From Cyanobacteria bacterium P01_A01_bin.123 (GTDB taxonomy: Bacteria; Cyanobacteriota; Cyanobacteriia; Phormidesmidales; Phormidesmidaceae): a stretch of 64,000 nt of DNA. The stretch's first letter is position 1, and each line of letters begins with the position of its first letter. Position numbers and translations under genes: made by a program. The notes beneath the pieces are model-generated. The model did no database searches and was not told where the DNA came from. It saw only the letters and a program-made list of their open reading frames with translations. Shown in pieces: positions 27,518 to 43,091 of this stretch. The stretch spans positions 8,876-72,875 of the forward strand of contig JBCBZT010000039.1 of NCBI GenBank assembly GCA_039815185.1, read 5' to 3'.

Positions 27518-27720
27518 ATCGGTCTTGAGAGGAATCTAAAATCAATAAACCCGAACGAGGACTCCGACGTTAGGATAGTCATGGTGTTCTGAAGCTTTGT
27601 GTTGGGAAACACTTGGCAGCAGTCTGCCCCGTAATCATTTCAACCACTCTATCGATGATCAACCGCGCCGGCATCAACAAAGCTGCTTCTGAGCCTGGGT
27701 CCTCTCCTATTGTTCGTTCG

Positions 27721-29658
27721 ATGCAGTCTACCAAACCAAAACGGATCCGCTCTAAACTGGGTCGCAGTAGCTTCAGTGCCGCAGCGACTGGGCTATTGAC
27801 AACGGGGTGGCTGTTGATTCAAACCCTAGCGCCCCTGCCTTCCCTGGCCCAAACTGCCGACACTGAAGATCCAGATGAGCTGACCTACAGCGGATTGCTG
27901 GAAAAAATTGATCAAGGGCAAGTTCAGCGGGTTGAGATTGATCCCACCCGTCAGGTTGCCCTGGTTGAGTTAGAGGGACAAGCAGAAGATGAGCCCGATC
28001 AGCGGGTAGATTTATTCGCGAGCGATCGCAACCCTGAGTTAGTCGAACGGTTGCGGGAGAATGATGTTGATTTTGACGTAGTCGCCTCTTCGGATAACAG
28101 TGCCCTCACCTGGCTAGCCACTAACTCACTGTTGGCCTTGATTGTCATTTTTGCCCTACTGATGATTTTGCGGCGATCGGCCAATGCTTCTGGTGGTGCC
28201 ATGAACTTTGGCCGTTCCAAAGCAAAGTTTCAAATGGAAGCCAAGACCGGCGTGTTGTTCGATGATGTTGCAGGCATTGAAGAAGCCAAAGAAGAGCTTC
28301 AAGAAGTCGTCACCTTTTTAAAGAAGCCTGAACGCTTCACCGCTATTGGGGCGCGGATTCCCAAAGGGGTCCTGCTGATTGGCCCACCAGGAACGGGTAA
28401 GACACTGCTGGCTAAAGCGATCGCGGGTGAAGCCGGGGTTCCGTTTTTTAGCATCTCTGGTTCTGAATTTGTGGAGATGTTTGTCGGCGTTGGCGCTTCT
28501 CGCGTCCGCGATCTGTTTAAAAAAGCAAAAGAAAGCGCCCCCTGTATTGTCTTTATTGATGAAATCGACGCTGTGGGGCGGCAGCGCGGTACCGGTATCG
28601 GCGGCGGCAATGATGAACGCGAACAAACCCTCAACCAGTTGTTGACCGAGATGGACGGGTTTGAAGGCAACAGCGGCATCATCGTGATTGCTGCGACCAA
28701 CCGACCCGACGTATTGGATTCGGCATTGCTGCGACCCGGTCGTTTCGATCGTCAAGTGGGTGTTGATTTACCCACCTACAAAGGGCGACTGGGAATTTTG
28801 CAGGTTCATGCCCGCGACAAGAAAATTTCTGAAGAGGTCTCCATCGAAGAAATCGCCCGACGCACTCCGGGTTTCTCCGGCGCTGACTTGGCAAACTTGC
28901 TCAACGAATCGGCAATCTTGACTGCCCGCCGCCGTAAAGATGCCGTCACCATGCTAGAAGTCAACGATGCGATCGATCGCATCACCGTAGGTATGGCCAA
29001 AACTCCCCTGCTAGACAGCTATAAAAAGCGGCTAATTGCCTATCATGAAGTCGGCCATGCCTTAATCGGTGTGCTGCTCGACCATTGTGAACCCCTCGAT
29101 AAGGTGACCATTATTCCCCGTTCTGGAGGCTTGGGCGGTTTCACCAAGTTCGTTCCCAATGAAAGCCGTTTGGATGATGGGTTGCAAAGTCGAGCCGAAA
29201 TTATCGATAACATCACCATGACCCTGGGGGGACGGGCTGCAGAAGAAGAAGTCTTTGGCCACGACGAAGTCACCTTTGGGGCCCAGGGCGATATTCAATC
29301 CGTAGCAGCCTTAGCCCGTCGCATGGTGGCTCGCTATGGCATGTCTGACCTCGGCCCATTAGCTTTAGAAACCTCGGGTGGCGAGGTGTTCTTGGGGCGC
29401 GATCTAATGCCCCGCTCGGAATATTCTGAAGCCGTGGCGACTAAGATCGACAAGCAAGTCCGTGCGATCGCATTCCATTGCCACGCCCAAGCCCGTGAGA
29501 TCTTGCACCAAAATCGTCCGTTGATGGATAAGCTGGTAGACCTGCTGCTCGACATCGAAACTATGGATGGAGATGACTTCCGCAAGGTTGTTAGCGAGTT
29601 TACCCAGATTCCTGAAGAGACCTTGGCTAAGCGAGAGTTGGCTAAACAGACCAGCTAG
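27721..29658 (+). CDS. ftsH: ATP-dependent zinc metalloprotease FtsH (start uncertain, ORF open from 27613)
   Basis: [26 protein letters not shown]...RPGRFDR, HEVGH, two TM helices. Confidence 0.96.
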
Positions 29659-29793
29659 AGCAGACAAGCGAAACGCAATGCATCAATAAGAACTGGCAAT
29701 CGTTAATCGGCGATCGCGGTGAGTTCTGTCTGCCCTCGCAATTGTGCTGTCCTTAATCGTTGGACCGTGGTTCTACTAATCCTGCAGGGTGTC

Positions 29794-29827
29794 AGATCCC
29801 TGGGTTTTCCGAAAAACCCAGGGATCT
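29794..29827. repeat. Perfect 15-bp inverted repeat, possible terminator
   Basis: AGATCCCTGGGTTTT-ccga-AAAACCCAGGGATCT downstream of ftsH. Confidence 0.65.
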
Positions 29828-29860
29828 CTTAGCTCAGACATCATCAAAAATGCTGTGAAT

Positions 29861-29965
29861 TATGGCGCTGGCCAAATTGCTTAATGCACCAGGTAGCGCT
29901 GGGATACTCAATACATAAGCAATCTGGCTCGCCGTAGCGCACAAAGTTTTGTGGCTACGGCTATA
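29861..29965 (+). repeat. ~105-bp dispersed double-hairpin repeat, copy 3
   Basis: Near-identical to 8604-8707 and 21926-22030. Confidence 0.9.
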
Positions 29966-30024
29966 AAAACGGGTACCGCTCGCCACACTTGGGCTTAGAT
30001 GCAGCAGAGCTTGAGCATGGTCGT

Positions 30025-30093
30025 AGAAACCGGGTTTCTCATGCTGAGCGCTGAGTGCCCCATTGACACCCCTTGCTCAGAAACCCGGTTTCT
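30025..30093. repeat. Inverted pair of 15-bp REP-like near-palindromes
   Basis: AGAAACCGGGTTTCT (30025-30039) and its exact reverse complement (30079-30093). Confidence 0.7.
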
Positions 30094-30279
30094 GCAAGGG
30101 GCGACGATCAGCAGGGACTAAAGTCATAATTACCCGTAGCGAGTAACCTACAGTCTCCGAAATCATGTCTACGATCGGTGTGGACTCTACAGACAACCCC
30201 ATCACATCAGGAGACAGGATGACGGCTACACTGCATCAAACTTCGCAACAATCCTGAACACTTTGAACAACCCAGCCCG

Positions 30280-30519
30280 ATGCAGCAGATGGCTTTAACA
30301 CTGATGTTGCTGGCGATTGAACCCCGACTGCTAGACATGAAGCAGGCGATTCAGCGCCCGAGCGATCCAGACTTCGATCGCTACTATGTTTCGTCGCACA
30401 TGGACTATTTGACCCACGCCCGCGATCGCCTTGTCGATCTTGCTGCCATGCCAGGGCCAATTTACACCATTGGGCTAATCGAAGCTTATCCGAAATTCCC
30501 CATTCAGCTCATTCGTTAA
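30280..30519 (+). CDS. Small hypothetical protein or gene remnant
   Basis: 79-aa ORF with natural-looking composition, no recognisable motif. Confidence 0.35.
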   Translation: MQQMALTLMLLAIEPRLLDMKQAIQRPSDPDFDRYYVSSHMDYLTHARDRLVDLAAMPGPIYTIGLIEAYPKFPIQLIR

Positions 30520-30641
30520 TCTTGGATAACCCTATCTCTCGCTTAAGTTGTCCTTAGCTATCGTGGCTAAAATAGCTGATAAGGCCTGCTGACCTTGAAT
30601 GTTGGATTAGGCGTAGACAGCGATCAGGGTGGCAACAGAGC

Positions 30642-31940
30642 ATGGTGTTAGATCTTTCTCAGTTTTACCAAGCGTGTAGTCCCAGTAAATCTCTCAGTTT
30701 TGACCAGGGCGATCAGGGATATTACATTGATTTTTCCCCCGTCCGGGGCGGCAGTATTATTCAAGAATTAGGACGCACAATTACGCGACTTGCCCCCGAT
30801 AGCCCGACCTGTCAACTGTTTACTGGACATGTCGGCTGTGGTAAATCAACAGAGTTGATCTGCCTAAAAACCCTGGTGGAACAGAACAACTTTCACGTGG
30901 TTTATTTTGAATCGAGTGAAGATTTAGATTTAGCCGATGTGGATGTGACTGACATTTTGCTGGCGATCGCGCGTCAAGTCAGCGAGAGTTTAGAGTCCAT
31001 TGAGATTAATTTAGACCTGCCCTATTTCCATCAACTTTTTCAATCCATTGGGGATATCTTTAAACCCGCATTAGCGATCGCAGACCATCAGTTTTCCAAC
31101 ACCATCGCGGAGATTACCGCCCGCACTAAAAACAGCCCAAAACTGCGGAGTCAACTGCGACAGTATTTAGAACCCCGCACTAACGGTATCTTAAATGCTT
31201 TAAATCAAGAATTGCTAGAACCTGCGATCGCAACCTTAAAACAGCGAGGCAAACAGGGATTGTTGGTGATCATTGACAATCTTGATCGGATTGATAACAC
31301 CCCAGGGGTAGCCGGTCGTCATCAACCCAGCTACCTATTTATTGACCGAGGGGAACAGCTGAAAAAGCTTAACTGTCATGTTGTTTATACCCTGCCTTTA
31401 GAATTAGTTTTCTCTAGCGATTTAGGCCTGATTACTAATCGTTTTGGTGTGGTGCCCAAAGTATTAGCAATGGTACCTGTCCGTCACCGAGATGGACAGC
31501 TCAGTCCTGAAGGCATGGTGCTGCTGCGACAATTGGTACTGGCGCGCGCTTTTCCCGGAATTGCTCCCGAACAGCGTTTAGCGTGGCTGGATCAGGTATT
31601 TGATGCCCCAGAGACCCTGGATCGGTTGTGTAGCGTTAGCGGCGGCCATGTCCGTAACCTACTGGTGCTGCTGTATCGCTGTTTGCAACGAGAAGATCCG
31701 CCTTTATCGCGGACTTGCGTTGAGCAAATTCTTCAACAACGCCGCAGTGAATTATTGCTGGCGCTGTCGGTGCCAGAAATCAAATCACTCCAGCGGGTAA
31801 TGGCGGAAAAACACATTCGCCACGACCCTAGTGAACAAATGCTGTTACACAGCATGTTCGTTTTTGAATATCGCAATGGGGGTGAGAGCTGGTTTGATAT
31901 CAACCCCATTCTGGCAGAGTCCCCGGAGTTTCAACCATGA
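30642..31940 (+). CDS. Stand-alone P-loop ATPase, paralog A1 (AAA/KAP/STAND-like)
   Basis: Walker A GHVGCGKST, Walker B LVIIDNLD, SGGHVR, C-terminal WFDINP. Confidence 0.88.
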   Translation: MVLDLSQFYQACSPSKSLSFDQGDQGYYIDFSPVRGGSIIQELGRTITRLAPDSPTCQLFTGHVGCGKSTELICLKTLVEQNNFHVVYFESSEDLDLADVDVTDILLAIARQVSESLESIEINLDLPYFHQLFQSIGDIFKPALAIADHQFSNTIAEITARTKNSPKLRSQLRQYLEPRTNGILNALNQELLEPAIATLKQRGKQGLLVIIDNLDRIDNTPGVAGRHQPSYLFIDRGEQLKKLNCHVVYTLPLELVFSSDLGLITNRFGVVPKVLAMVPVRHRDGQLSPEGMVLLRQLVLARAFPGIAPEQRLAWLDQVFDAPETLDRLCSVSGGHVRNLLVLLYRCLQREDPPLSRTCVEQILQQRRSELLLALSVPEIKSLQRVMAEKHIRHDPSEQMLLHSMFVFEYRNGGESWFDINPILAESPEFQP

Positions 31941-34885
31941 GTGATGACGATTCATCCCAAGGATCAATTCCAGAATCAGATCCAGAATTGAGCCAGTGGT
32001 CAACAGAAAATGATGCCGCTTTAACCGCCCTCATCCGAGCGATTCAGCTATCAGCGGGCCAATTTTCGCTGATTTTAGCCCACTGCAACTATGGCGATCT
32101 GCGCGATCGCGTCATCCAACATCTCAGTCAACGCAATGATCTGGGGCTGACTTTCTTGCACTTGCCCCCCGACGTCAGCTCCCTGTTAACCACGCTGAAA
32201 GAGGCCGACCCTGAAACCCTAGACGCCAAAGAAGGCTCAAATAATAACCCCAGCGCCTTGATGGTGCTGGGGTTAGAGGCGGTTGATCAGCTGCAAATCT
32301 TGCTCAGCACTGCCAATCGAGCCCGAGAAGAATTTCGTAAATCTTTTCCCTTTGCGATGGTGTTATGGGTCAACGACGCCATTTTAAGGCAATTGATTCG
32401 CCGGGCTCCTGATTTAGAAAACTGGGCAACGCCGATCCATTTCACAGTGACACCGCCGGCGTTGCTGAAGCTGCTACAACGCACCACCGACGATGTGTTT
32501 GCCAGAGTCATGGAAGCCGGGGCGGGGCGATTTGTCAATGCAGCCAATTTATACCCCGATGGCGAAGAGAAACAACGCATTAATGCCCTGGAAGCCGCCC
32601 TGCGCGAGCTAAAACTGCGCCAGATTCAACCGGAAGCTGCACTCCAGGCCAGCTTAGAATTCGTCCTGGGACAAGACACTTGGGATCAGCCCGAGACTGC
32701 TCTGGCACATTACGAACACAGCCTCGCAATTTGGCCCCCCGACCAAAATCGCTCTCGTCAAGGGTGTGTGCTGTTTTACCTAGGGCTGTGGTGGCGGGCT
32801 CAGGCGGTGCGTCACCGAGAGCAATATACCGAAGCTTGTGAACAATCGCTAGACTATTTTCGCCAAGCGATTGGCGTCTTTCGCAGCAGCGATCGATTTG
32901 ATTTAGAAGCCCGTTTTATCAACGCCTTAGCAGAAGTTTTGCAACGGCTGGAACGATGGGATGAACTGGCGGATGTCGCCAAGCGGGGCTTAACCCTGCA
33001 CCAACAAGGCGTATCCCTAGCATCTCTGGCAGCTGGACAGATGGATCAAAGCGTCCGCTTAGCCCATGACTACGGCATGATGGCCGATGTGGCGCTATCT
33101 CAGCAGCAGTGGTCTGTCGCTCAAACTCACGCCGAACAAGCCTTAGAGATCTTAAATCAAGTCAATCAGGCGATCGCCAATCATGCTGGACCTCGCCCCG
33201 ATGCTTCCCTCGATTGGGCTCGGGCCTACCACCGCCAACAGTATCACTTTAGTTTGGCCCGAGCGTTGTTGGGCATGGGCCAATATCACGGAGCCATTAC
33301 CCAGCTTGAAATCGCTCAACACCTAGGCAACCCCAAATATGATCCCCAGCTCTACATTCGCATTTCTCGCCAGCTCCAATTGCTCTACTACCGTCAAAAG
33401 CGCTATTTAGAAGCCTTTCAGATTCGCCAAATTTACCGCACCGTCGAACAGCAGTATGGTCTGCGAGCCTTTATCGGGGCCGGGCGGTTGCAGCCCCACC
33501 AAGTGGTGCAAAGTCCAGCCCTAGCTGTGCCCGATCAACCCGATGACATCCCCCCTGAAATCGTTGCCTCTGGGCGTCAACCCGACGTGGAACGGCTAGT
33601 ACATCGCATGTATCGACCTGACTATAAACTCACCGTAATCTACGGTCAGTCTGGGGTAGGCAAAAGTTCCATGATTGAAGCAGGGTTAATCCCGGCGTTG
33701 CAGCAACAGGTGATTGACAGCCGCGAAGTCGTACCCGTACTGCTGCAAATCTACGCCCATTGGGTGAAGCAGTTGGGGGCTCAGCTGGCGATCGCTTCCC
33801 ATCCTGACGACACCAACCCCGTAGATCTGCCGTCGTTAGACGCTCAAGCCACAATTTTGGCCCAACTACAAACCAATGCTGACCACAATCGATTAACCGT
33901 CCTGATTTTTGATCAGTTTGAGGATTTTTTTGCCACGACGGCCAGCCAAGCTTCTCATCGCCCGTTCTACAAGTTTTTAGGACAGTGCTTGGCCCTCCCT
34001 TACATCAAAGTGGTGCTGTCTTTACGTGAAGACTACATCCACCATCTGCTGGTATTCAATCGCCTAGTCAACCTAGATATTATCGACAATAACATCCTCG
34101 ATAAAGCCATCCTTTATCACATTGGCAACTTCACCAAATCCGATGCCCGCCAACTGATTCAGCAGTTGACCCACCAGGCCCAGTTCCATCTAGAACCTGC
34201 TTTGATCGATCGCCTAGTGTATGATTTGGCTGAGGCATCCGAAGAAGTCCGCCCAATTGAACTGCAGGTTTTGGGGAACCAACTCCAAACCGAAAACATC
34301 ACGACTCTAGCCCAGTACGAGACCTTTGCCAATGGAGATCGCAGCTCCAAAGAAGTCATCGTCGAACGCTACCTCGACGCAGTGATCAAAGACTGTGGTC
34401 CCGAAAATCGCCGCGCCGCTGAACTGGTGCTTTACTGGCTGACCGACGAAGCCGAGACCCGCCCCCTACGCACCAAAGCTGAATTGGCCACCAACTTAGA
34501 CTCTGAAGCCCATCGCCTCGATTTGGTACTCAAGATTCTGGTTCACTCCGGAATTGTGTTGCTATTGCCGGCTCACCCGATCGAACGCTATCAGTTGGTT
34601 CATGACTATCTGGTAACTCTAATTCGTCGCCAACGCGGGGCTAAGCTGCTCCAAGAAATTGCCATCCTGCGTCAGCAAGAAGCCGATAGCCGATCTGCAC
34701 TAATGCGTCAGATAAGAAATAGGCTAAGAATAACTATAGTAGGCAGTATACTAGCGCTTTTTCTTGGAGTTTTGGTTGTAGCACTAGCTCTAGAAATTCA
34801 ATCTCTGAGAAATGAAGTTCGGGCTGACAAAATAAGAATCAAGGAACTTGAAAGAATACTTGATCACCTCCAAAATGAGCAATAA
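31937..34885 (+). CDS. NLR-like protein B1: degenerate N-domain, TPR-like helices, nSTAND1-type NTPase, TM helix, short coiled coil, no WD40
   Basis: GQSGVGKSS, LIFDQFED, SLRED, PIELQ, YQLVHDYL; ATGA overlap with A1. Confidence 0.82.
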   Translation: MSDDDSSQGSIPESDPELSQWSTENDAALTALIRAIQLSAGQFSLILAHCNYGDLRDRVIQHLSQRNDLGLTFLHLPPDVSSLLTTLKEADPETLDAKEGSNNNPSALMVLGLEAVDQLQILLSTANRAREEFRKSFPFAMVLWVNDAILRQLIRRAPDLENWATPIHFTVTPPALLKLLQRTTDDVFARVMEAGAGRFVNAANLYPDGEEKQRINALEAALRELKLRQIQPEAALQASLEFVLGQDTWDQPETALAHYEHSLAIWPPDQNRSRQGCVLFYLGLWWRAQAVRHREQYTEACEQSLDYFRQAIGVFRSSDRFDLEARFINALAEVLQRLERWDELADVAKRGLTLHQQGVSLASLAAGQMDQSVRLAHDYGMMADVALSQQQWSVAQTHAEQALEILNQVNQAIANHAGPRPDASLDWARAYHRQQYHFSLARALLGMGQYHGAITQLEIAQHLGNPKYDPQLYIRISRQLQLLYYRQKRYLEAFQIRQIYRTVEQQYGLRAFIGAGRLQPHQVVQSPALAVPDQPDDIPPEIVASGRQPDVERLVHRMYRPDYKLTVIYGQSGVGKSSMIEAGLIPALQQQVIDSREVVPVLLQIYAHWVKQLGAQLAIASHPDDTNPVDLPSLDAQATILAQLQTNADHNRLTVLIFDQFEDFFATTASQASHRPFYKFLGQCLALPYIKVVLSLREDYIHHLLVFNRLVNLDIIDNNILDKAILYHIGNFTKSDARQLIQQLTHQAQFHLEPALIDRLVYDLAEASEEVRPIELQVLGNQLQTENITTLAQYETFANGDRSSKEVIVERYLDAVIKDCGPENRRAAELVLYWLTDEAETRPLRTKAELATNLDSEAHRLDLVLKILVHSGIVLLLPAHPIERYQLVHDYLVTLIRRQRGAKLLQEIAILRQQEADSRSALMRQIRNRLRITIVGSILALFLGVLVVALALEIQSLRNEVRADKIRIKELERILDHLQNEQ
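33050..34710 (+). repeat. ~1.65-kb diverged direct repeat, copy 1 (TPR-NTPase core of B1)
   Basis: Colinear with ~39282-40945; differences mostly at synonymous positions. Confidence 0.9.
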
Positions 34886-35242
34886 ATTCTTTAGACTAAT
34901 CCTATTGGTTTTCCATATATTTGAGCAGATAGATAATACTAAAAATAGTCTAACCGTATGTATCAAGTTAATTTGAGGCAGGGTTTCATCAAGGGCGGCG
35001 GGACTCGTTTCGTTAATGGTTGCAGTAACATCGAGGTCGTCGCGATGGGCACTGCCGAGGTTCAGAGTGTTGATTGGATTAGTTGCTAAGGCATCGGGGG
35101 CCGAAGTTGCGTCTTGGGTTTGGTTAACGTTGATGGCGGTGTTGGCGAGATTGGTTTGGCGCAGGTCGTTGGCCTCGGGTGTGGCGTAAGCGTAGGGTGA
35201 GATTGCAACATTGGCGACTAAGGCGAGTGTGAGGTGTTTCAT
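34790..35242 (-). CDS. Small putative secreted low-complexity protein (3' end uncertain)
   Basis: GGAG upstream of the ATG, signal-peptide-like MKHLTLALVANVAISPYAYA, T/N/D/A-rich body; the tail runs into AT-rich DNA and overlaps B1. Confidence 0.5.
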   Translation of the reverse strand: MKHLTLALVANVAISPYAYATPEANDLRQTNLANTAINVNQTQDATSAPDALATNPINTLNLGSAHRDDLDVTATINETSPAALDETLPQINLIHTVRLFLVLSICSNIWKTNRISLKNLLLILEVIKYSFKFLDSYFVSPNFISQRLNF

Positions 35243-35510
35243 GGTTTGGACTCCGGTAGGGCGGGTGAACTGTTCGCCTTGAGTCTTATGATCTAGCGGA
35301 TTGCTGAGAGGCCTGTGACTGGAAAATAAGTACGGCTTAATAGCAAGCTAAGAATGCCCTATGTGTTTAGGCACGAAGGGGAATACGGTATCGAGGCGAA
35401 ATTTGCAACCCATGATCAATTGTGCAGTTACATTTTTTGAGGCATCTGCTACTCTACGGCTTACTTGAGATAAAAATAAAGAGCAGATTGAAAAATCCTT
35501 GAGGTACATT

Positions 35511-36824
35511 TTGATAGACTTGCAGAGTTTCTTCTCCGCCAGCAATCCTAGCAAGGCTCTATCCATAAGCGACCCTGAGGATCAGATGTACTATATTGAT
35601 TTCTCCTCAGTGCGAGGCGGTCAGCTTACTGAGGCCTTAGAACGAACAATAGTAAGGCTTTCTCCAAATGAGCCGACCTGCCAACTATTCAGTGGCCATA
35701 TTGGTTGTGGTAAGTCAACAGAATTACTTCGTCTTAAGTCAAATTTAGAACTACAAGGGTTCTATGTCGTTTATTTTGAGTCCACTGATTATTTAGATAT
35801 GGCAGATGTCGATATCACAGATATTCTGCTAGCCATTATTCGCCGAGTTAGCGAAAGTTTGGAGGAAATAGGGATCAGACTCAGCTCCAATTATTTTAGT
35901 CACATTTTAAATGAAATATCAGATCTCCTGAATGTACCGATTTCATCGTCCAGCACAATGAATATTTCTACAGGAATCTCAGAGGTTGGAAGACGGGCTC
36001 GGGTTAGTCCAAAAATCCGGAGTCAATTAAGACAATATCTAGAACCCAGAACCAACAGTATTTTGGAAGCTATAAACGTTCTACTACGGTATGCCACTGA
36101 AAAGCTTATGCGGCAAGGTAAAAAGGGAATTGCTATTCTTATTGACAATTTAGACCGTATTGATTCTCGCTCAACCATTGCAGGACGTTCACAACCAGAA
36201 TATATTTTTATTGATCGGGGAGAGCAATTAAGAGCATTGGATTGCCACTTAGTATATACGGTACCAATATCTGTTATTTTCTCCAATGACGGTGAAACGT
36301 TGAAGAATCGATTGGGCGGCGGTATTCGTCCTAAAGTTCTACCAATGATTCCTGTAAAACATCGAGATGGTAGCCGTCATGAGGAGGGTATGTCTCTGTT
36401 AAGACAGATGGTTCTAGCACGAGCATTTCCGAGAGCTAACACAGCACAGCGTTTCAACTTAATCTATGAGATTTTTGATTCTCCTGAAACCTTAGACCGT
36501 CTTTGCTTCATAAGCGGCGGTCACGTGCGGAACTTGTTGGGACTACTCTATCGCTGCCTACAAGAAGAAGATCCCCCATTTTCGAGATCCCTACTAGAAA
36601 AGATGATTCGAGAGACACGAGATGTATTAGTACTGTCAATTTCTGAAAGAGAGTGGAAATTTTTAATAGAGGTAGTGAAGACCCAGATTGTAAGCAGCGA
36701 TAAAGATCTTTGGACTCTTCTAAGAAGTCTATTTCTATTTGAATATCGAGATCAGCAAGGGAGCTGGTTTGACATAAATCCAGTTCTAATAGAAACAGAG
36801 AAATTCAAGTCTTTTCAACTATAG
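35511..36824 (+). CDS. Stand-alone P-loop ATPase, paralog A2
   Basis: GHIGCGKST, ILIDNLD, SGGHVR, WFDINP; colinear with A1; GAGG 6 nt before the TTG at 35511. Confidence 0.88.
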   Translation: MIDLQSFFSASNPSKALSISDPEDQMYYIDFSSVRGGQLTEALERTIVRLSPNEPTCQLFSGHIGCGKSTELLRLKSNLELQGFYVVYFESTDYLDMADVDITDILLAIIRRVSESLEEIGIRLSSNYFSHILNEISDLLNVPISSSSTMNISTGISEVGRRARVSPKIRSQLRQYLEPRTNSILEAINVLLRYATEKLMRQGKKGIAILIDNLDRIDSRSTIAGRSQPEYIFIDRGEQLRALDCHLVYTVPISVIFSNDGETLKNRLGGGIRPKVLPMIPVKHRDGSRHEEGMSLLRQMVLARAFPRANTAQRFNLIYEIFDSPETLDRLCFISGGHVRNLLGLLYRCLQEEDPPFSRSLLEKMIRETRDVLVLSISEREWKFLIEVVKTQIVSSDKDLWTLLRSLFLFEYRDQQGSWFDINPVLIETEKFKSFQL

Positions 36825-36838
36825 ATGCGTTATTAAAA

Positions 36839-38188
36839 GTGGTTGACAATCGATTCCTTGAAGTCTTTAATCCTGTAAATGTCGTAAATGACGACCGCTA
36901 CTATGTTGACTTTTCTCTGGTGACAGGTGAAAGAGTTCTTGAACCAATGAGAAGAACCATTTGCCTTAGCAAGCCAGATAGCTTTACTAGCCAACTGATT
37001 ACAGGTTATGGTGGTTGCGGCAAATCAACAGAGTTAATAAATCTAAAGTCAAAACTCATCCGAGATGGGTTCTATGTTGTTTACTTTAGATTTGAGCGCC
37101 AGCTAAATGAAGTAGATGTAAGGCCAACTGATATTATTTTATTAAGCATTGCTTATCGAGTCATTCAAAGCTTAAAAAGAGACTTCGAAATTAACCTTGA
37201 ACCTAATTTTTTCATAAGAATATGTATCTGGTTAGCGGATGTTCTTTTGGGCATATTTCGTCTTCAGTTGAATTTTGAAGTGGAGCGGGAAATCCCAAAG
37301 GTGGGCAAAGTTAAGATTTCGATTAAACCAAAAGATACTACTAGGAATCTAAGTAAACTCGAATTTTGGGATCGCATTAAACCTTCCTCAAATAATATTT
37401 TAGACTTCGTCAATGAGATTCTTCATAGGGCTACTGGCAAGCTAAAACAGCTTAATAAGAAAGGCCTTGTTGTTATTGTAGACAACCTAGATCACCTGGA
37501 CAAATCGACAGATTTATCTCTACTAGAACAGGTATTTATTGACAGGAATGAACCTTTAAGCCAACTAAAATGCCATATTATTTATACACTCCCAATTTCA
37601 TTAATTTATTCCAAGAAATATGAATCTTTAAAGAGACTAGGTGGTGGCATTGATCCAAAGATATTAAGGATAGTTCCTGTGCAACTTCGCGACGGCAGCG
37701 AGAATTTAGAGGGAATTAAACTTCTTAAGCAAGTAATTCTTTCAAGAGCATTTCCACACGTTCATGTCGATAAACGCTATAGCCTTATTAGCCAACTATT
37801 TGACAATCCAGAAAGCCTAACCAGACTATGCAGAATAAGTGGTGGAAAGGTACAAAAACTTTTGGAAATTCTTAATAATTGTCTGCAAAGAGTATACCCA
37901 AAAATTCTCGTCAAAGGAGATATAGAATATGAAATAAAGCAATATTGCAATAGGCTCTTATTTAGAATGACAGAGGAAGAACGAAAGATAGTTTGTCAGA
38001 TACTACAGAACATTGATCCAGAGATTGCGTTAGAAAAGCGTGAACTTCTTTTGTATGGAATTCAAAAGGGACTTATCCTGGAATATAAAGATCGTTATAA
38101 GGGAAGTTGGTTTGGCCTTGACCCAACTTTTTTAGAGATCGAGGAGTTTCAAGCTATAGTCAAATCAAAAAACTCTAAACATGAGTAG
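36839..38188 (+). CDS. Stand-alone P-loop ATPase, divergent paralog A3
   Basis: GYGGCGKST, VIVDNLD, SGGKVQ, WFGLDP; colinear with A1/A2. Confidence 0.85.
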   Translation: MVDNRFLEVFNPVNVVNDDRYYVDFSLVTGERVLEPMRRTICLSKPDSFTSQLITGYGGCGKSTELINLKSKLIRDGFYVVYFRFERQLNEVDVRPTDIILLSIAYRVIQSLKRDFEINLEPNFFIRICIWLADVLLGIFRLQLNFEVEREIPKVGKVKISIKPKDTTRNLSKLEFWDRIKPSSNNILDFVNEILHRATGKLKQLNKKGLVVIVDNLDHLDKSTDLSLLEQVFIDRNEPLSQLKCHIIYTLPISLIYSKKYESLKRLGGGIDPKILRIVPVQLRDGSENLEGIKLLKQVILSRAFPHVHVDKRYSLISQLFDNPESLTRLCRISGGKVQKLLEILNNCLQRVYPKILVKGDIEYEIKQYCNRLLFRMTEEERKIVCQILQNIDPEIALEKRELLLYGIQKGLILEYKDRYKGSWFGLDPTFLEIEEFQAIVKSKNSKHE

Positions 38189-41100
38189 ATTGCAATCTAC
38201 AAGAGAAGATGACTCTCACAGCGTGTTTGACAAAAAAACGCTACATACCTTGATAAGGACAATTTCATTCTCAGTCAATCAGTTTTCTCTTATCATTTTA
38301 CGCTGCAATTATCAAGAACTGGGTGCAAAAATACTGGAGAGGCTGAAAGGAGTTGATGACCTTAGTATTCAGGAAATAATTCTGCCGGTATCCGCTACAA
38401 CTCTTTACACCACGATCCAGACAGAATTCAGGAAAATAGAATCACAGCCTTCTGCACTAATAATTTTAGGATTAGAAGGCATTAAATCATTAGATGACTT
38501 ATTAGTTTCTGCCAACCAAGTTAGGGACGAATTTCGAAAAAGCTTTTCTTGTCCTGTGATTTTATTATGTGACGATGAGGCTTTGCAGAAGTTAGTAAGG
38601 CTAGCTCCCGATTTCTATAATTGGGCAACACTTATACAAGTCAATATTTCCACGCCAATATTATACAAATTTATGCGGACAAAAGCGGATAATATTTTTG
38701 CTTTGGCTTCCGAAATAGACTTGAAAAACTTTCAGAATAGAAAGCTTATATATTCAGAAGAAATAGCACGGCAAAAGAAAGAAATTGAGTACGCCTATTC
38801 TGATTTTCAGGATCATTATGCGAATTCTAATCCAGAAATTGTAGCGATCCTAGACTTTACTTGCGGACTAGAACTTCATGCCAACAACTTAACTTCTGAT
38901 GCTCTAGAGAAATATTCAAACAGTTTGGACTTCTGGCGGGAAAAGGACTCAGAGAGATTAGGTGTCTTGCTATTCTATATGGGGATTTGCTACTACCATC
39001 ATGCTCTTAATCAGCATGAGATTACTAGATTCTCTGAGCAAGCAAAGAACTGCTTTAAAGGCTGTTTGACAACATTCGAACAGGGGAAGCATCTTGACCT
39101 AGTGTCAAAATACATCGGGCAAGTTGGCAAAGCCTTGGAGCGAATGGAGGCTTGGGAAGACCTGGAGATACTTGCATCAAGGGCATTGAGCCTCCATAGT
39201 ACTCTCTACAATTCAGCATATTTAGGAGGAGGTAGCGATTCCCTATCTAAAGTCGCACTATATCAAGCACAATGGGAAAATAGCATACGTCTGGCTCACG
39301 ATCACGGCATGTTAGCCAATGTGGCGCTGTCTCAGCAGCAGTGGTCTGTTGCTCAAACCCATGCTGAGCAGGCTCTAGATATTTTGAATCAGGTCAACCA
39401 AGCGGCCGCCCCTGGGATTCCGTCACAAACTAATGGATCTTTGAATTGGGATAGAGCTTACTACTGCCAGCAGTATCACTTTAGTTTAGCCCAGGCGCTG
39501 TCGGGCATGGGACAGTACCACGAGGCCATTACCCAACTTGAAATTGCTCAACACTTGGGTAATCTCGAATATGACCCCCAGCTCTACATCCGCATTTCTC
39601 GCCGGTTGCAGCTGCTCTACTATAGCCAAAAACGCTATTTAGAAGCCTTTCAAATGCGCCAAATCTACCGCACTGTCGAACAACAGTACGGTCTGCGAGC
39701 CTTTACTGGCGCTGGACGGTTGCGGCCTCGTAAAACGTTGCACAGTCCAGCGCTAGACGTCCCCGATCAACCCGATGACATTCCCCCCGAAATTGTTGCC
39801 TCTGGGCGTCAACCCGATGTGGAACGGTTGGTGCATCGCATGTATCGGCCCGACTATAAACTCACCGTGATCTATGGCCAGTCTGGGGTTGGTAAAAGCT
39901 CCATGATTGAAGCAGGGCTGATTCCGGCGTTGCAGCGCCAGGTGATTGACAGTCGTGAAGTCGTGCCTGTGCTCCAGCAAATTTATGCTCATTGGCTCAA
40001 GCAGTTGGAGGTTCAGCTGGTGCTCGCATCCCATCCTAAGGGTGCCAAACAGGCCTCAAAAACACCCTACCTAGACACGCCAGCGGCGATTTTGGCCCAA
40101 CTCCAAACCAATGCCGATCGCAATCAACTGACGGTCCTGATTTTTGACCAGTTTGAGGAATTTTTTGTCACGACAGCTAGCCAACCTCACCATCGCCAGT
40201 TTTACGAGTTCTTAGGACAGTGCTTGGCCTTACCCTATGTCAAAGTCATCCTGTCTTTGCGCGAAGACTATATTCACCACCTGCTGGCTTTCAATCGCCT
40301 TGTCAATCTAGACATTATCGACAACAACATTCTCGATAAGTCCATCCTCTACCGCATTGGCAACTTCACCAAGCCCGACGCCCGCCGGCTGATTCAGCAG
40401 TTGACCTACCAAGCGCAATTTCCTTTAGAACCTACTTTGGTAGAGCGTCTGGTGGAAGATTTGGCTGGAGGCTCTGAGGAAGTTCGCCCGATTGAGCTGC
40501 AAATGCTAGGGGAGCAGCTCCAAACCGAAAACATCACAACCTTAGCCCAGTACGAGACCTTTGCCAACCGCGAACGCAGTTCAAAAGAAGTGATTGTCGA
40601 TCGCTATCTCGACTCAGTCATCAAAGACTGTGGCCCCGAAAATCGTCGTGCTGCCGAGATGGTCCTCTACTGGCTCACCGACGAAGCCGAAACCCGTCCC
40701 CTGCGCACCAAAGCTGAACTGGCCACCAATTTAGGCTCTGAAGCCCATCGCCTCGATTTGGTACTCAAGATTTTGGTTCACTCCGGGATTGCCTTGCTGC
40801 TGCCCGCCCACCCGATCGAACGCTATCAGCTGGTTCACGACTATCTAGTAGCCCTGATTCGCCGCCAGCGTGGGGCCAAACTGCTCCAAGAAATTGCCAT
40901 ACTGCGCCGGCAAGAAGCGGATAACCGCTTTGCCCTAGTCCGTCAAAAACGTCTGCTGCGAAACGGCGGTATTGTGCTTGCCATCAGTTTGGGAGTGATG
41001 TCGATTCTAGGCACCTTAGCTAGCCGGATTCAAACCCAAAATCAGCTAATCCAGTTGAGATTAGATGCCAGTAATGCCCTCGAACTTTACGAAATTTCTC

Positions 41101-43091
41101 AAACGGAGGGGTTGCTCGCTGCCCTGGAAGCAGCCCAAAACCTACGCAAACTAGACGCAACCGAGCAAGCTAGGATCGTAGCGATGGTGCTACAGCAGAT
41201 GCTGAATCAATTTACTCAAGACCACACCTTCATTACCGACCAGAATGAAATTTTGGCCCTTAGTGTTAGCCCAGACGACACCTTACTGATCACGGCGGAT
41301 GCCGAAGGATTTGTCAAACTTTGGACGATAGCCGGAGAATTAAAGCACACGCTGCCGCGCCAAGACGGTTCTATTTGGGGGGTCGAGTTTAGCGCCGATG
41401 GCAAAACTTTTGCAATCGCGGGCACCAATGGGCAGGTCTCCCACTGGGATTTAAACGGCAAGCAGATTACCCAGTGGTCAGCCCACAGCGATAGTGGCGT
41501 CGCGAGTTTGGCCTATCATCCCAATGGCGATCGCATCGCCACTGCTGGGGCAGACGGCAGTGTCAAGGTGTGGGATACTGATGGCAACTTAGCCAAGGCC
41601 TGGATCGCCTCCACTGAAGGTGAGGTGATTGCCAACCTGAGCTTTAGCCCTGACGGCAATTATCTGGCAACCGCAGGCTACGATGGCCAAGTGCAAGTTT
41701 GGAATATTGAAGGCCAACTCGTTCATCGTTTTGATCATGCTGAAGCAGTGTTGGACTTGAGTTTTCATCCCCGGGGTAATCAACTGGCCAGCGTTGATCA
41801 AGTCGGCAATATTTACCTGTGGGATTTGGAACAAGGGGAGTTGCTGCAAACAATGGGGGAAGGCAGTCAACCGCTGGCCGCAGTTCGCTTTACCGAGGAC
41901 GGCAACCAACTGGTGGTTGCGGGTGATTTGGGCATTGTGCAACTTTGGGATATACGTGGCTACAAACTGACAGATTTAGTCGGCCATCAAAGTTGGGTTT
42001 GGGCCCTTGATCGCCGACCTAATGGTCAATTTATCTCCGCTGATATCAGTGGCAAAGTCCAAATCTGGGATGTGACCGATCGGGCTCAGGCGCGCTGGTC
42101 TGCCTACGACGCGATCGCGTGGAGTGTTAACTTTAGCCCCGATGGCCAAACATTGCTGACTGCTGGGGAAACCGGGATAGCCACTCGCTGGGATTTAAAC
42201 GGCGATCGCTTGACTCAATACGAAGGGCACGGGGCCGTCACGATTGGTGATCTAGCCCCCCAACAAAACATTTACTGGGCTGAATTTAGTGCCGACGGCG
42301 ATCGAGTGGTTACCGCCGGTCAAGACGGCACTGCTCGGGTTTGGTCTTTAACAGGGCAAGAACTAGCGCTGCTCAATCACGAAGAAGCCGTCGTCAACAC
42401 GGCCACTATTAGCCCAAATGGTGACTCCATCGCAACTGGCGACGGCTTAGGCGACGTCCGGCTATGGAGCATCAATGGAGAGTTACAACAAACCTTAGAA
42501 GCCCATTCAGAGAGGGTTTTAAGCGTCCGCTTTAGCCCCGATGGTCAGTATTTAGCAACCGCCAGTAGCGATCGCACCGCGCAGATTTGGGATCTTCAAA
42601 CTCAAAAACCCATCGTTCAGCTCGAAGGCCATCAAGACACGGTATCTTGGGTTGCTTTTAGTCCCGATGGTCAGGCCGTGGTCACCGCCAGTCACGATGG
42701 CACCGCCCGCCTTTGGGATCTGCAAGGCAATCTGATCACCGAACTGATTGGTCATTCCCGCCGAATTACCTGGGTAGGGTTTAGTCCCAAAGGCAATTAC
42801 ATCGCCACTGCCAGTGCTGATAATCGAGTAATTCTATGGCGCTATCAGGGCAGCCAAACCCATCAAATGCGACAGTTCACCGGCTATGCGGGCGAGGTCT
42901 TTAGTGCCTCATTTAGCCCCGACGAACAAACCATTGCGGTTTCAGATAGTACGGGAACCATCACGCTATGGCCCATCGAAAACCTCGATATGCTAATTGA
43001 GCGCGGGTGCGATTGGGTCCGCCAGTTCAATGCCCCCAAGGGTAAAGAACGTTCCGAACTTAGCAGTGTCTTGGCTGAATGTAGTCAATAG
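38181..43091 (+). CDS. NLR-like protein B2: degenerate N-domain, TPR-like helices, nSTAND1-type NTPase, TM helix, 14 WD40 repeats
   Basis: GQSGVGKSS, LIFDQFEE, YQLVHDYL, TM GGIVLAISLGVMSILGTLA, 14 counted repeats of the FSPDG...ATAS.D...WD type; 8-nt overlap with A3. Confidence 0.9.
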   Translation: MSRLQSTREDDSHSVFDKKTLHTLIRTISFSVNQFSLIILRCNYQELGAKILERLKGVDDLSIQEIILPVSATTLYTTIQTEFRKIESQPSALIILGLEGIKSLDDLLVSANQVRDEFRKSFSCPVILLCDDEALQKLVRLAPDFYNWATLIQVNISTPILYKFMRTKADNIFALASEIDLKNFQNRKLIYSEEIARQKKEIEYAYSDFQDHYANSNPEIVAILDFTCGLELHANNLTSDALEKYSNSLDFWREKDSERLGVLLFYMGICYYHHALNQHEITRFSEQAKNCFKGCLTTFEQGKHLDLVSKYIGQVGKALERMEAWEDLEILASRALSLHSTLYNSAYLGGGSDSLSKVALYQAQWENSIRLAHDHGMLANVALSQQQWSVAQTHAEQALDILNQVNQAAAPGIPSQTNGSLNWDRAYYCQQYHFSLAQALSGMGQYHEAITQLEIAQHLGNLEYDPQLYIRISRRLQLLYYSQKRYLEAFQMRQIYRTVEQQYGLRAFTGAGRLRPRKTLHSPALDVPDQPDDIPPEIVASGRQPDVERLVHRMYRPDYKLTVIYGQSGVGKSSMIEAGLIPALQRQVIDSREVVPVLQQIYAHWLKQLEVQLVLASHPKGAKQASKTPYLDTPAAILAQLQTNADRNQLTVLIFDQFEEFFVTTASQPHHRQFYEFLGQCLALPYVKVILSLREDYIHHLLAFNRLVNLDIIDNNILDKSILYRIGNFTKPDARRLIQQLTYQAQFPLEPTLVERLVEDLAGGSEEVRPIELQMLGEQLQTENITTLAQYETFANRERSSKEVIVDRYLDSVIKDCGPENRRAAEMVLYWLTDEAETRPLRTKAELATNLGSEAHRLDLVLKILVHSGIALLLPAHPIERYQLVHDYLVALIRRQRGAKLLQEIAILRRQEADNRFALVRQKRLLRNGGIVLAISLGVMSILGTLASRIQTQNQLIQLRLDASNALELYEISQTEGLLAALEAAQNLRKLDATEQARIVAMVLQQMLNQFTQDHTFITDQNEILALSVSPDDTLLITADAEGFVKLWTIAGELKHTLPRQDGSIWGVEFSADGKTFAIAGTNGQVSHWDLNGKQITQWSAHSDSGVASLAYHPNGDRIATAGADGSVKVWDTDGNLAKAWIASTEGEVIANLSFSPDGNYLATAGYDGQVQVWNIEGQLVHRFDHAEAVLDLSFHPRGNQLASVDQVGNIYLWDLEQGELLQTMGEGSQPLAAVRFTEDGNQLVVAGDLGIVQLWDIRGYKLTDLVGHQSWVWALDRRPNGQFISADISGKVQIWDVTDRAQARWSAYDAIAWSVNFSPDGQTLLTAGETGIATRWDLNGDRLTQYEGHGAVTIGDLAPQQNIYWAEFSADGDRVVTAGQDGTARVWSLTGQELALLNHEEAVVNTATISPNGDSIATGDGLGDVRLWSINGELQQTLEAHSERVLSVRFSPDGQYLATASSDRTAQIWDLQTQKPIVQLEGHQDTVSWVAFSPDGQAVVTASHDGTARLWDLQGNLITELIGHSRRITWVGFSPKGNYIATASADNRVILWRYQGSQTHQMRQFTGYAGEVFSASFSPDEQTIAVSDSTGTITLWPIENLDMLIERGCDWVRQFNAPKGKERSELSSVLAECSQ
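39282..40945 (+). repeat. ~1.65-kb diverged direct repeat, copy 2 (TPR-NTPase core of B2)
   Basis: Colinear with ~33050-34710, offset ~6.23 kb. Confidence 0.9.

Follow-up and report, generated by a model that had tools for sequence, protein, structure and literature searches.

The window analysed here is a 64,000-nucleotide (nt) stretch of the genome bin Cyanobacteria bacterium P01_A01_bin.123 (contig JBCBZT010000039.1, positions 8,876 to 72,875; coordinates below are those of the window), and it carries two tandem operons of a conserved, uncharacterised cyanobacterial two-gene STAND (NLR-like) family. The family consists of P-loop ATPase genes (A genes) and genes for large multidomain proteins (B genes). 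Comparison with relatives indicates that the present order, A1-B1-A2-A3-B2, probably arose when one ancestral A1-B operon was split by a 6.2-kb unit at the boundary between the core and the hydrophobic helix of its B gene, with B2 gaining a new head together with A2 and A3. We infer the direction of the insertion and the mechanism of recombination from the anatomy of the locus, its breaks in composition, the unsplit alleles of relatives and a set of discordant trees, all described below. The bin comprises 8.09 Mb in 133 contigs with an estimated completeness of 99.99% and contamination of 5.99%, and the window is cyanobacterial in character, with 84 sites for the HIP1 octamer GCGATCGC against 0.9 expected.

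All five genes are transcribed from the plus strand, and the overlaps between the A1 stop and the B1 start (4 nt) and between A3 and the B2 start (8 nt) suggest two operons (Table 1). Proteins of the B family follow a common plan, with an N-domain (degenerate AAA+-like with helical repeats, as modelled below), an nSTAND1 NTPase, one hydrophobic helix and usually a WD40 sensor. The nSTAND1 domain (PF20703, curated cut-off 27.1 bits) was recognised at amino acids (aa) 546–894 of B1 (117 bits, E 1.9e-33) and aa 542–890 of B2 (115.8 bits, E 4.6e-33), and in a 30-row alignment that includes both proteins the P-loop GQSGVGKSS and the Walker B motif LIFDQFE are invariant or nearly so. The hydrophobic helix lies between the NTPase and the WD40 position in 26 of the 30 family members examined. 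WD40 repeats are found only in B2 (PF00400, E 4e-93, seven stretches) and none are present in B1. The B2 frame is uninterrupted over its full length.

Table 1. Genes, repeats and compositional segments of the split A-B locus.
Feature	Position	Strand	Description
A1	30642..31940	+	432-aa ORC/Cdc6-/STAND-like P-loop ATPase, native partner gene
B1	31937..34885	+	982 aa: N1 aa 1-371, core1 aa 372-924, 58-aa tail; no WD40
Core copy 1 (left direct repeat, native-type)	33050..34710	+	Repeat comparison, P0122 matching, two HIP1 sites
HIP1-free stretch	33796..41526	.	Roughly the block differing from close strains
Longest exact core1/core2 match, 37 nt	34501..34537	+	Partner 40736-40772; source-run unitigs break there
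Low-GC HIP1-free insert	34711..39281	.	B1 tail, spacer, small native gene fragment, A2, A3, N2
GC-rich island	34970..35355	-	Shortened copy of native 109-aa signal-peptide gene: promoter side and ~92 codons
A2	35499..36824	+	441-aa A-family ATPase
A3	36839..38188	+	449-aa divergent A-family ATPase
B2	38181..43091	+	1636 aa: N2 aa 1-367 (low GC), core2 aa 368-921, hydrophobic helix, native-type WD40
Core copy 2 (right direct repeat; diverged native-clade allele)	39282..40945	+	dS/dN against core1, core tree

A preliminary description of this DNA had reported that 33050–34710 and 39282–40945 are colinear and differ mainly at synonymous positions, and our measurements agree with it. The segments 33043–33178/39275–39410, 33213–33512/39445–39744 and 33837–34136/40072–40371 are 76–83% identical at a spacing of 6232–6235 nt, and over their whole length the two cores share ~80% nt identity and 462 of 553 aa, with dN (nonsynonymous substitutions per site) of 0.10 and dS (synonymous substitutions per site) of 1.0 (Nei-Gojobori, 454 codons). 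B1 and B2 are identical across aa 540–589. Both borders of the repeat are sharp: in a codon-wise profile, aa identity rises from ~0.2–0.5 to ~0.8–1.0 at about B1 aa 368 (nt ~33040 and 39270–39285) and drops again past aa 924 (nt 34710 and 40945). The offsets between the copies (6232 and 6235) and the start-to-start distance of the two genes (6244) place both copies in one codon phase. A deletion from core to core would therefore preserve the frame, and the earlier suggestion that repeat recombination could rebuild an N1-core-WD40 gene is sound in that respect. The companion proposal that the core acts as a recombination hinge is plausible for the family as a whole but fares less well for the present copies: the longest exact match between them is 37 nt with frequent differences on either side, and at ~80% overall identity homologous recombination between them should be rare. 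No joint of a 6.2-kb deletion was seen in the contigs of the source run, which drop rare variants.

The DNA between the cores was described beforehand as AT-rich, with abrupt borders inside genes near 34710 and 39280, and these borders coincide with sharp breaks in identity and in GC content at third codon positions (GC3). The native-like parts have GC3 values of 0.54 (N1), 0.57 (core1), 0.58 (core2) and 0.53 (WD40), and the low-GC parts 0.21 (B1 tail), 0.35 (A2), 0.31 (A3) and 0.37 (N2); along the whole length of both cores GC3 stays at 0.5–0.7 with no switch. Segment 34712–39281 (4570 bp) has a GC content of 0.393 compared to 0.502 for the genome; among 15069 genome windows of 4.5 kb, 0.45% have a GC content as low as this. 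The exception that had been placed at ~34980–35330 is confirmed as a GC-rich island inside the low-GC interval, at ~34970–35355.

The distribution of HIP1 sites also follows the preliminary description, which had the octamer missing from ~33797 to ~41527. No site lies between 33795 and 41527, a 7739-bp gap in which 8.6 would be expected and which ranks 17th among 8918 gaps in the genome. The low-GC insert has none against 5.1 expected and core2 none against 1.9; core1 has two and A1 three. The core1 sites, at 33170 and 33788, are degenerate in core2, where they read GCGGCCGC and GTGCTCGC, as had been noted. In both base composition and oligomer signature the insert is unlike its host, as would be expected of a horizontally acquired genomic island. 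About 35 other low-GC islands occur in this genome, so 34712–39281 is one of a common kind and not a unique anomaly.

The postulated native gene with N1, core and WD40 in one frame exists in relatives at four distances, with identities to B1 of 63%, 80%, 85% and 93%. In genome G001, of the same genus, two contigs (L029 and L030) share an identical 141-base overlap and together carry an A gene followed by one B gene. The A gene product is 73% identical to A1; the 5' piece of the B gene is 63% identical to B1 aa 14–825, and the 3' piece is 59.5% identical to B2 aa 777–1634 along the entire helix-WD40 part, for which other family members reach only 30–40%. Closer unsplit alleles were found in a large protein collection, namely P0122 (1639 aa), P0123 (1651 aa) and P0124 (1631 aa). 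P0122 shares 614 of the 618 residues of B1 aa 1–618 and 648 of the 715 of B2 aa 922–1636, including 367 of 382 from aa 1255 onwards (nt ~41943). The unsplit long form with WD40 is also common in the family, since most of the best 120 of 235 matches to N2 are 1500–1750 aa long and carry WD40 repeats.

Sequencing runs from other studies describe the same site in close strains. Runs X2, X5 and X9, from three studies, cover 30000–33795 (A1, N1 and the first half of core1) at 95–99% identity, give no cover over 34200–39800, and resume at high identity near 41757–42253. Such gaps are no proof of absence, and the argument rests on the unsplit proteins and on one 414-nt X5 contig from a different study, which links 33795 to 40071 with 40 unlike letters between. 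The empty site is thus present in G001, P0122, P0123, P0124 and the X5 contig, and together these unsplit alleles and the bridging contig argue that a native N1-core-WD40 gene was split.

It is extremely unlikely in the light of these alleles that nothing was split at all, and that B1 (a short form) and B2 (a WD40 form) are long-resident tandem paralogues with cores homogenised by gene conversion. The genome does contain three more B paralogues, short forms such as P0109 and P0079 are known elsewhere, and the identity between B1 and B2 is limited to the most conserved part of the proteins, all of which would suit such a history. Relatives, however, join an N1-type head straight to a B2-type WD40 in one gene, close strains are without A2, A3 and N2 altogether, and conversion can account neither for a low-GC tail on a native gene nor for a native WD40 on a low-GC head. 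Gene conversion between old paralogues was accordingly rejected on the evidence of the unsplit alleles.

Separate trees for the head and the core are in conflict, in accord with different origins of the two parts as the preliminary description supposed. In the core tree (42 rows) B2 falls within a clade with B1, P0122, P0123 and P0124 (SH-aLRT, the Shimodaira-Hasegawa-like approximate likelihood ratio test, 100), and core2 is sister to the unsplit P0123 (SH-aLRT 99; 482/554 residues identical). In the N-domain tree B1 groups with P0122–P0124 (SH-aLRT 100), and N2 falls outside this group, with a branch length of 1.21 substitutions per site. The approximately unbiased (AU) test rejects placement of N2 inside the B1/P0122–P0124 clade with p 0.0076, a value weakened by the choice of this group after the core-tree result. 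B1 and B2 differ at 91 core sites, and of these P0122 has the B1 residue at 62, the B2 residue at 16 and neither at 13, which identifies core1 as the resident copy. The distances of the two cores to G001 are similar (dS 1.65 for core1 and 1.73 for core2), and in a sliding comparison core1 is slightly closer along the whole length with no switch. The informative sites of the cores are mosaic with respect to P0122, P0123 and P0124.

We consider it unlikely that the split state is the older one, with the unsplit alleles produced by homologous deletion between the cores restoring an in-frame N1-core-WD40 gene. Old cores (dS ~1.0) in the same codon phase are what such a history would leave behind, as are the B2-type core residues in P0122 (16/91) and P0123 (34/91), clustered at aa 619–693, but the four unsplit alleles at 63%, 80%, 85% and 93% identity would need one deletion each or one ancient deletion. 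No allele shows a single change from core1 to core2 type; P0122 reverts to the B1 type beyond this patch, and its last six sites are mixed (1,1,1,2,1,2). The longest exact match between the cores is short, at 37 nt, and a long, unsplit form is what the family normally has.

We therefore return to the splitting of a single operon, for which the following course of events may be proposed. The ancestral state would have been A1-B(N1-core-helix-WD40), as still present in close strains, and a 6.2-kb unit would have come to sit at the core/helix boundary. Its content would have been a low-GC tail of helix plus coiled coil, a scrap of a small native gene, A2, A3, the divergent N2 and a second core. 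B1 would have kept its native head and core and lost the sensor, and in B2 the old WD40 sensor would be connected, by way of a second core of the native clade, to a new head that has two A partners of its own.

The locus has the topology of an insertion-duplication, as from a single crossover with a circle. In Campbell-type insertion-duplication, circular DNA carrying an internal fragment of a gene integrates by one crossover. The present locus resembles such an integrant in the direct repeats that flank the insert, in the 3'- and 5'-truncated copies of the gene, and in the possibility of in-frame restoration. It differs in the age and divergence of its repeats (dS ~1) and in that homologous parts of the same family complete each truncated copy in frame, and no circle, integrase or origin is visible. 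The preliminary description had envisaged a foreign cassette entering by crossover within the core. The native head and low-GC tail of B1, together with the foreign-looking head and native WD40 of B2, agree with this proposal, but a crossover between a native and a foreign core does not, as both cores are GC-rich, both belong to the native clade (SH-aLRT 100), and there is no switch of affinity.

N2, A2 and A3 look so foreign that a gene of the same kind would have too little nt identity with the native core for homologous recombination. The incoming gene may already have been a mosaic carrying a native-clade core; the split locus may have formed long ago in a related lineage and arrived as a block; or the joints may have been made by illegitimate recombination and favoured by selection, since they connect homologous positions in frame. 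The block route, in which an already split locus would be imported from a diverged relative by homologous replacement, would have the same outcome. It fits the near-identity of B1 and P0122 up to aa 618 (nt ~33790), the end of the cover from other strains at 33783–33795, the return of high identity at 41757–42253 in reads and at ~41943 in P0122, and the HIP1-free gap at 33796–41526. Patches at B1 aa 619–697 and B2 aa 1135–1254 complicate it. Whatever the route, the locus has recombined repeatedly.

Several observations weigh against the splitting of one operon by a single unit. P0122 is patchily unlike both window genes: at B1 aa 619–697 only 49 of 79 residues are identical to it, B1 here standing apart from B2 and from each of P0122, P0123 and P0124, and at aa 1135–1254 B2 matches P0123 at 104 of 120 residues and P0122 at 88. 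These patches require several recombination events. Both cores are native in composition and clade, so a simple crossover with a wholly foreign gene does not fit; it would follow that the incoming gene was already mosaic, or that the cores were homogenised and then diverged. The cores have a dS of ~1.0, while B1 and P0122 differ at 4 of 618 residues. This disparity with the near-identical N1 of P0122 ruled out an origin of core2 by duplication in situ at the time of strain divergence.

Also on this side of the balance, no donor was found for the low-GC part (N2, A2, A3 and the tail), for which we infer a foreign origin. The best match to N2 among species-representative genomes is 35%, the best match to A3 in 120 cyanobacterial genomes is 44%, and the best relative of A2 stands at 60%. 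Plasmid relatives sought by DNA and protein did not exceed 38.5% identity, and viral contigs searched with A3 and N2 gave no relative. In favour of the proposed event, family members occur on cyanobacterial plasmids, some of them conjugative, at up to 38.5% identity to A3, and such plasmids are a possible vehicle. The insert contains no integrase, transposase, other mobility gene or tRNA and no convincing terminal inverted repeats. No Rfam family was found in it, and promoter-like sites (22 versus 17.3 in shuffles) and terminator-like sites (13 versus 15.1) are no more frequent than in shuffled sequence.

The last of these adverse points is sequencing depth. Contigs of the source run X1 tile the deposited sequence without a difference, and depth over 35177–40765 is 22.1, against 31.8, 31.1 and 32.2 in the neighbouring pieces. 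GC content is similar in 35177–40765 (0.425) and in 34508–35200 (0.459, depth 31.1). Neither GC bias nor a subpopulation free of the cassette fits the full depth of 34508–35200, and both were set aside as causes of the drop; population heterogeneity at the locus is possible. An assembly artefact, in which an unsplit chromosomal gene and a separate 6.2-kb circle or second locus (A2-A3-N2-core-tail) were misjoined at the 37-nt stretch, strikes us as very unlikely. The contigs of the source run break at 34508–34530 and 40743–40765, and both pairings fit the graph; breaks at the 37-nt repeat suggest words of 31 bases, and the lower depth and the bin contamination of 5.99% point the same way. Against this, the exact stretch is only 37 nt long amid frequent differences, so ordinary reads span it; 34508–35200 would be on the circle, yet it has the full depth of 31.1; and downstream of the 37-mer P0122 agrees with B1 at four of six informative sites, as expected for a contiguous core1. 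The deposited contig, moreover, runs through the whole region.

B1 departs from native sequence after aa 924 and ends 58 residues on, and this tail contains a hydrophobic 19-mer (Kyte-Doolittle mean 2.91 at aa 934) in the position seen in 26 of 30 family members. A search of 5.8 billion proteins with aa 921–982 returned no homologue at E 10 or better. Short B forms ending soon after the hydrophobic helix occur elsewhere (for example P0109 and P0079), and the B1 tail thus appears to be the end of a short-form family member and not chance read-through. B2 is a true chimera, with an orphan low-GC head, a core from a diverged native-clade allele, and a native sensor. In the same protein collection N2 is no more than 41% identical to any of 235 matches.

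The public gene call for B2 (P0126, 1329 aa) begins at an internal methionine, Met308, and the frame is open from 38181. Residues 1–307 of B2 (38181–39104) are homologous to family N-domains throughout, and the deposited record probably has no annotation for the low-GC N2 head. Within the WD40 region, 42498–42725 contains an internal direct repeat with a spacing of 126 nt and 71% identity, as expected for tandem blades.

The GC-rich island inside the insert is 82% identical at the nt level over 399 bp to another place in the same genome (G000:C14:28072-28470). Its native counterpart (L032:6029-6358, minus strand) encodes a 109-aa protein with a signal-peptide-like start, to which the island protein is conserved up to about residue 92, where it is cut off; the reading frame continues into low-GC DNA (minus-strand open reading frame [ORF] 34790–35242). 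No Pfam, NCBIfam or PADLOC match was obtained for this gene island. Its identity is close to that of core1 and core2, suggesting that the cassette gained native-lineage DNA at about the time that the cores diverged.

The A proteins are homologous P-loop proteins, with A2 55% and A3 38% identical to A1. A1 gives weak P-loop matches in Pfam (AAA_22, ATPase_2, KAP), and its AlphaFold2 (AF2) model, with a mean predicted local distance difference test score (pLDDT) of 82, matches the folds of ORC/Cdc6, CED-4 and archaeal (STAND-like) ATPases at E ~1e-5 and a template modelling (TM) score of ~0.4. The closest relatives of A2 are 60% and 57% identical (L021 and L023). A3 retains all invariant columns of a 14-row A alignment, including Walker A (GCGKST) and DNLD, and more generally A2, A3 and N2 all have open frames, with the invariant columns of their respective alignments preserved. 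An A gene lies directly upstream of B, one each, in all 10 of the relatives' loci that contain an A gene (L011–L013, L017–L021, L023 and L027).

A model of N1 (pLDDT 83) gives weak fold matches to AAA+ subunits (RFC, ORC3, TnsC) and to TPR proteins, with a best E of 2.3e-4 and TM ~0.3, and its sequence is without a Walker A motif. As a lead, the modelled N-domain may be a degenerate AAA+-like domain followed by helical repeats. No recognised N-terminal effector domain or EAD adaptor domain was found in aa 1–330 using Pfam, NCBIfam and PADLOC. Complex prediction for A1 with B1 aa 1–371 scored 0.79 versus 0.01 for the best control, with runs agreeing in at least 94% of contacts and a partner pLDDT of at least 85. 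Scores this high were obtained for 116 of 157 solved complexes and for 2 of 215 mismatched pairs, counts that hold roughly because own alignments were used. The predicted interface on B1 involves residues 27–45, 124–134, 147–168 and 223–227, taking in the family-invariant N127, R130, E132, F133, R134, D147, D159 and W163. A1 is thus predicted to bind N1.

The repeat begins, at its left border, shortly after this predicted A-binding region, so each A would stay with its own N-domain, and the model suggests that pairing is kept across the insert, A1 with N1, and A2 and A3 with N2. A bolder extension, which we offer tentatively and regard as rather doubtful, is that A, as an active ORC-like ATPase, and the N-domain, as its degenerate AAA+-like partner, form a matched heterodimer, a swappable output or control module of a membrane-spanning receptor with its WD40 beyond the helix, and that whole A+N modules, horizontally acquired ones included, are re-plugged in natural populations onto resident sensors, through recombination at the borders of the NTPase core. 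The window would then record one such swap, with the displaced native module kept in sensor-less form.

Other members of the family show further variety. In other cyanobacteria the N-domain and nSTAND1 core are joined to TPR, protein kinase, CHASE2 or Roc/COR-like C-termini (P0020, P0043, P0045, P0029 and others), and these varied partners suggest that modules are often exchanged where the core meets the C-terminus. A mobilizable plasmid of Calothrix (L033, 6983–14490) carries an A-family gene with two reading frames behind it, one for a 698-aa hypothetical protein and one for a 1301-aa WD40 protein, perhaps the B architecture split in another manner. The three further B paralogues of the present genome (G000:C104:1069-3750, C15:675-3608 and C113:840-3944) are 41–49% identical to the core, and all lie within a few kb of contig ends, which suggests that such repeat-rich genes break the assembly. 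Upstream of the locus, ~1 kb between ftsH (27613–29658) and A1 (29659–30641) is without an ORF of at least 80 aa.

In the NLR clusters of plants and fungi, diversity arises through unequal crossing-over and through the shuffling of domains about a conserved NOD. The locus described here is like them in its conserved NTPase, its exchangeable N- and C-modules, the presence/absence and mosaic alleles within a species, and its tandem paralogues. It is unlike them in being a prokaryotic operon whose separate partner ATPases travel with the N-module, and the foreign base composition of the new module suggests horizontal input and not shuffling within the genome. With antiviral STAND systems (Avs, bNACHT) it shares the general logic of a sensor, a STAND NTPase and an N-terminal output, although no nuclease, protease or TIR effector was detected. 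The PADLOC 2.0 defence models gave no significant match, the best being PDC-S20 (E 1e-4, for A1 and A2) and LmuB (E 6e-4 over 20 residues), and an NCBIfam search gave nothing significant for defence annotation.

The nSTAND1 domain was defined by comparative genomics, as a part of predicted counter-invader conflict systems in multicellular bacteria (Kaur, Iyer, Burroughs, Aravind, eLife 2021, PMC8195603), and a later discussion treats nSTAND1 proteins as sensors whose diversity stems from retroelements and domain shuffling (Dore et al., PNAS 2024, PMC10907252). As far as these systems are set out in the parts of the two papers considered here, B resembles them in its PF20703 match well above cut-off, in the order of N-module, NTPase and repeat sensor, in its host, a filamentous-type cyanobacterial lineage, and in belonging to a family with many paralogues and variable C-terminal modules. 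It differs in its degenerate AAA+-like N-terminus, predicted to bind an ORC/Cdc6-like ATPase encoded upstream, and in the hydrophobic helix between NTPase and WD40 (26/30 members). Those parts of the nSTAND1 literature (PMC8195603, PMC10907252) contain no description of pairing with an ORC-like ATPase, of a helix preceding the WD40, or of a split within a species.

By analogy with STAND receptors, the WD40 would sense a ligand, the nSTAND1 core would switch and oligomerise, and the N-domain with its A partner would pass the signal on, giving the locus a putative role in immunity, kin recognition or signalling. After the split, the old sensor would report through a new module, and B1 would be left without a sensor.

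Bacterial STAND (NLR-like) proteins are modular across deep phylogeny, and to our knowledge cases in which the states before and after a module exchange are both seen within one species are scarce. The split locus alters no general principle; for plant and fungal NLRs, module exchange around a conserved NTPase is a familiar theme. It allows both alleles, unsplit and split, to be compared directly, together with the discordant histories of head, core and sensor. The locus shows how such receptors trade modules, with partner ATPases moving together with the head that they are predicted to bind, and it provides testable hypotheses as to which parts of a receptor must co-evolve, where recombination is tolerated, and what role a common but unstudied cyanobacterial STAND family may play.

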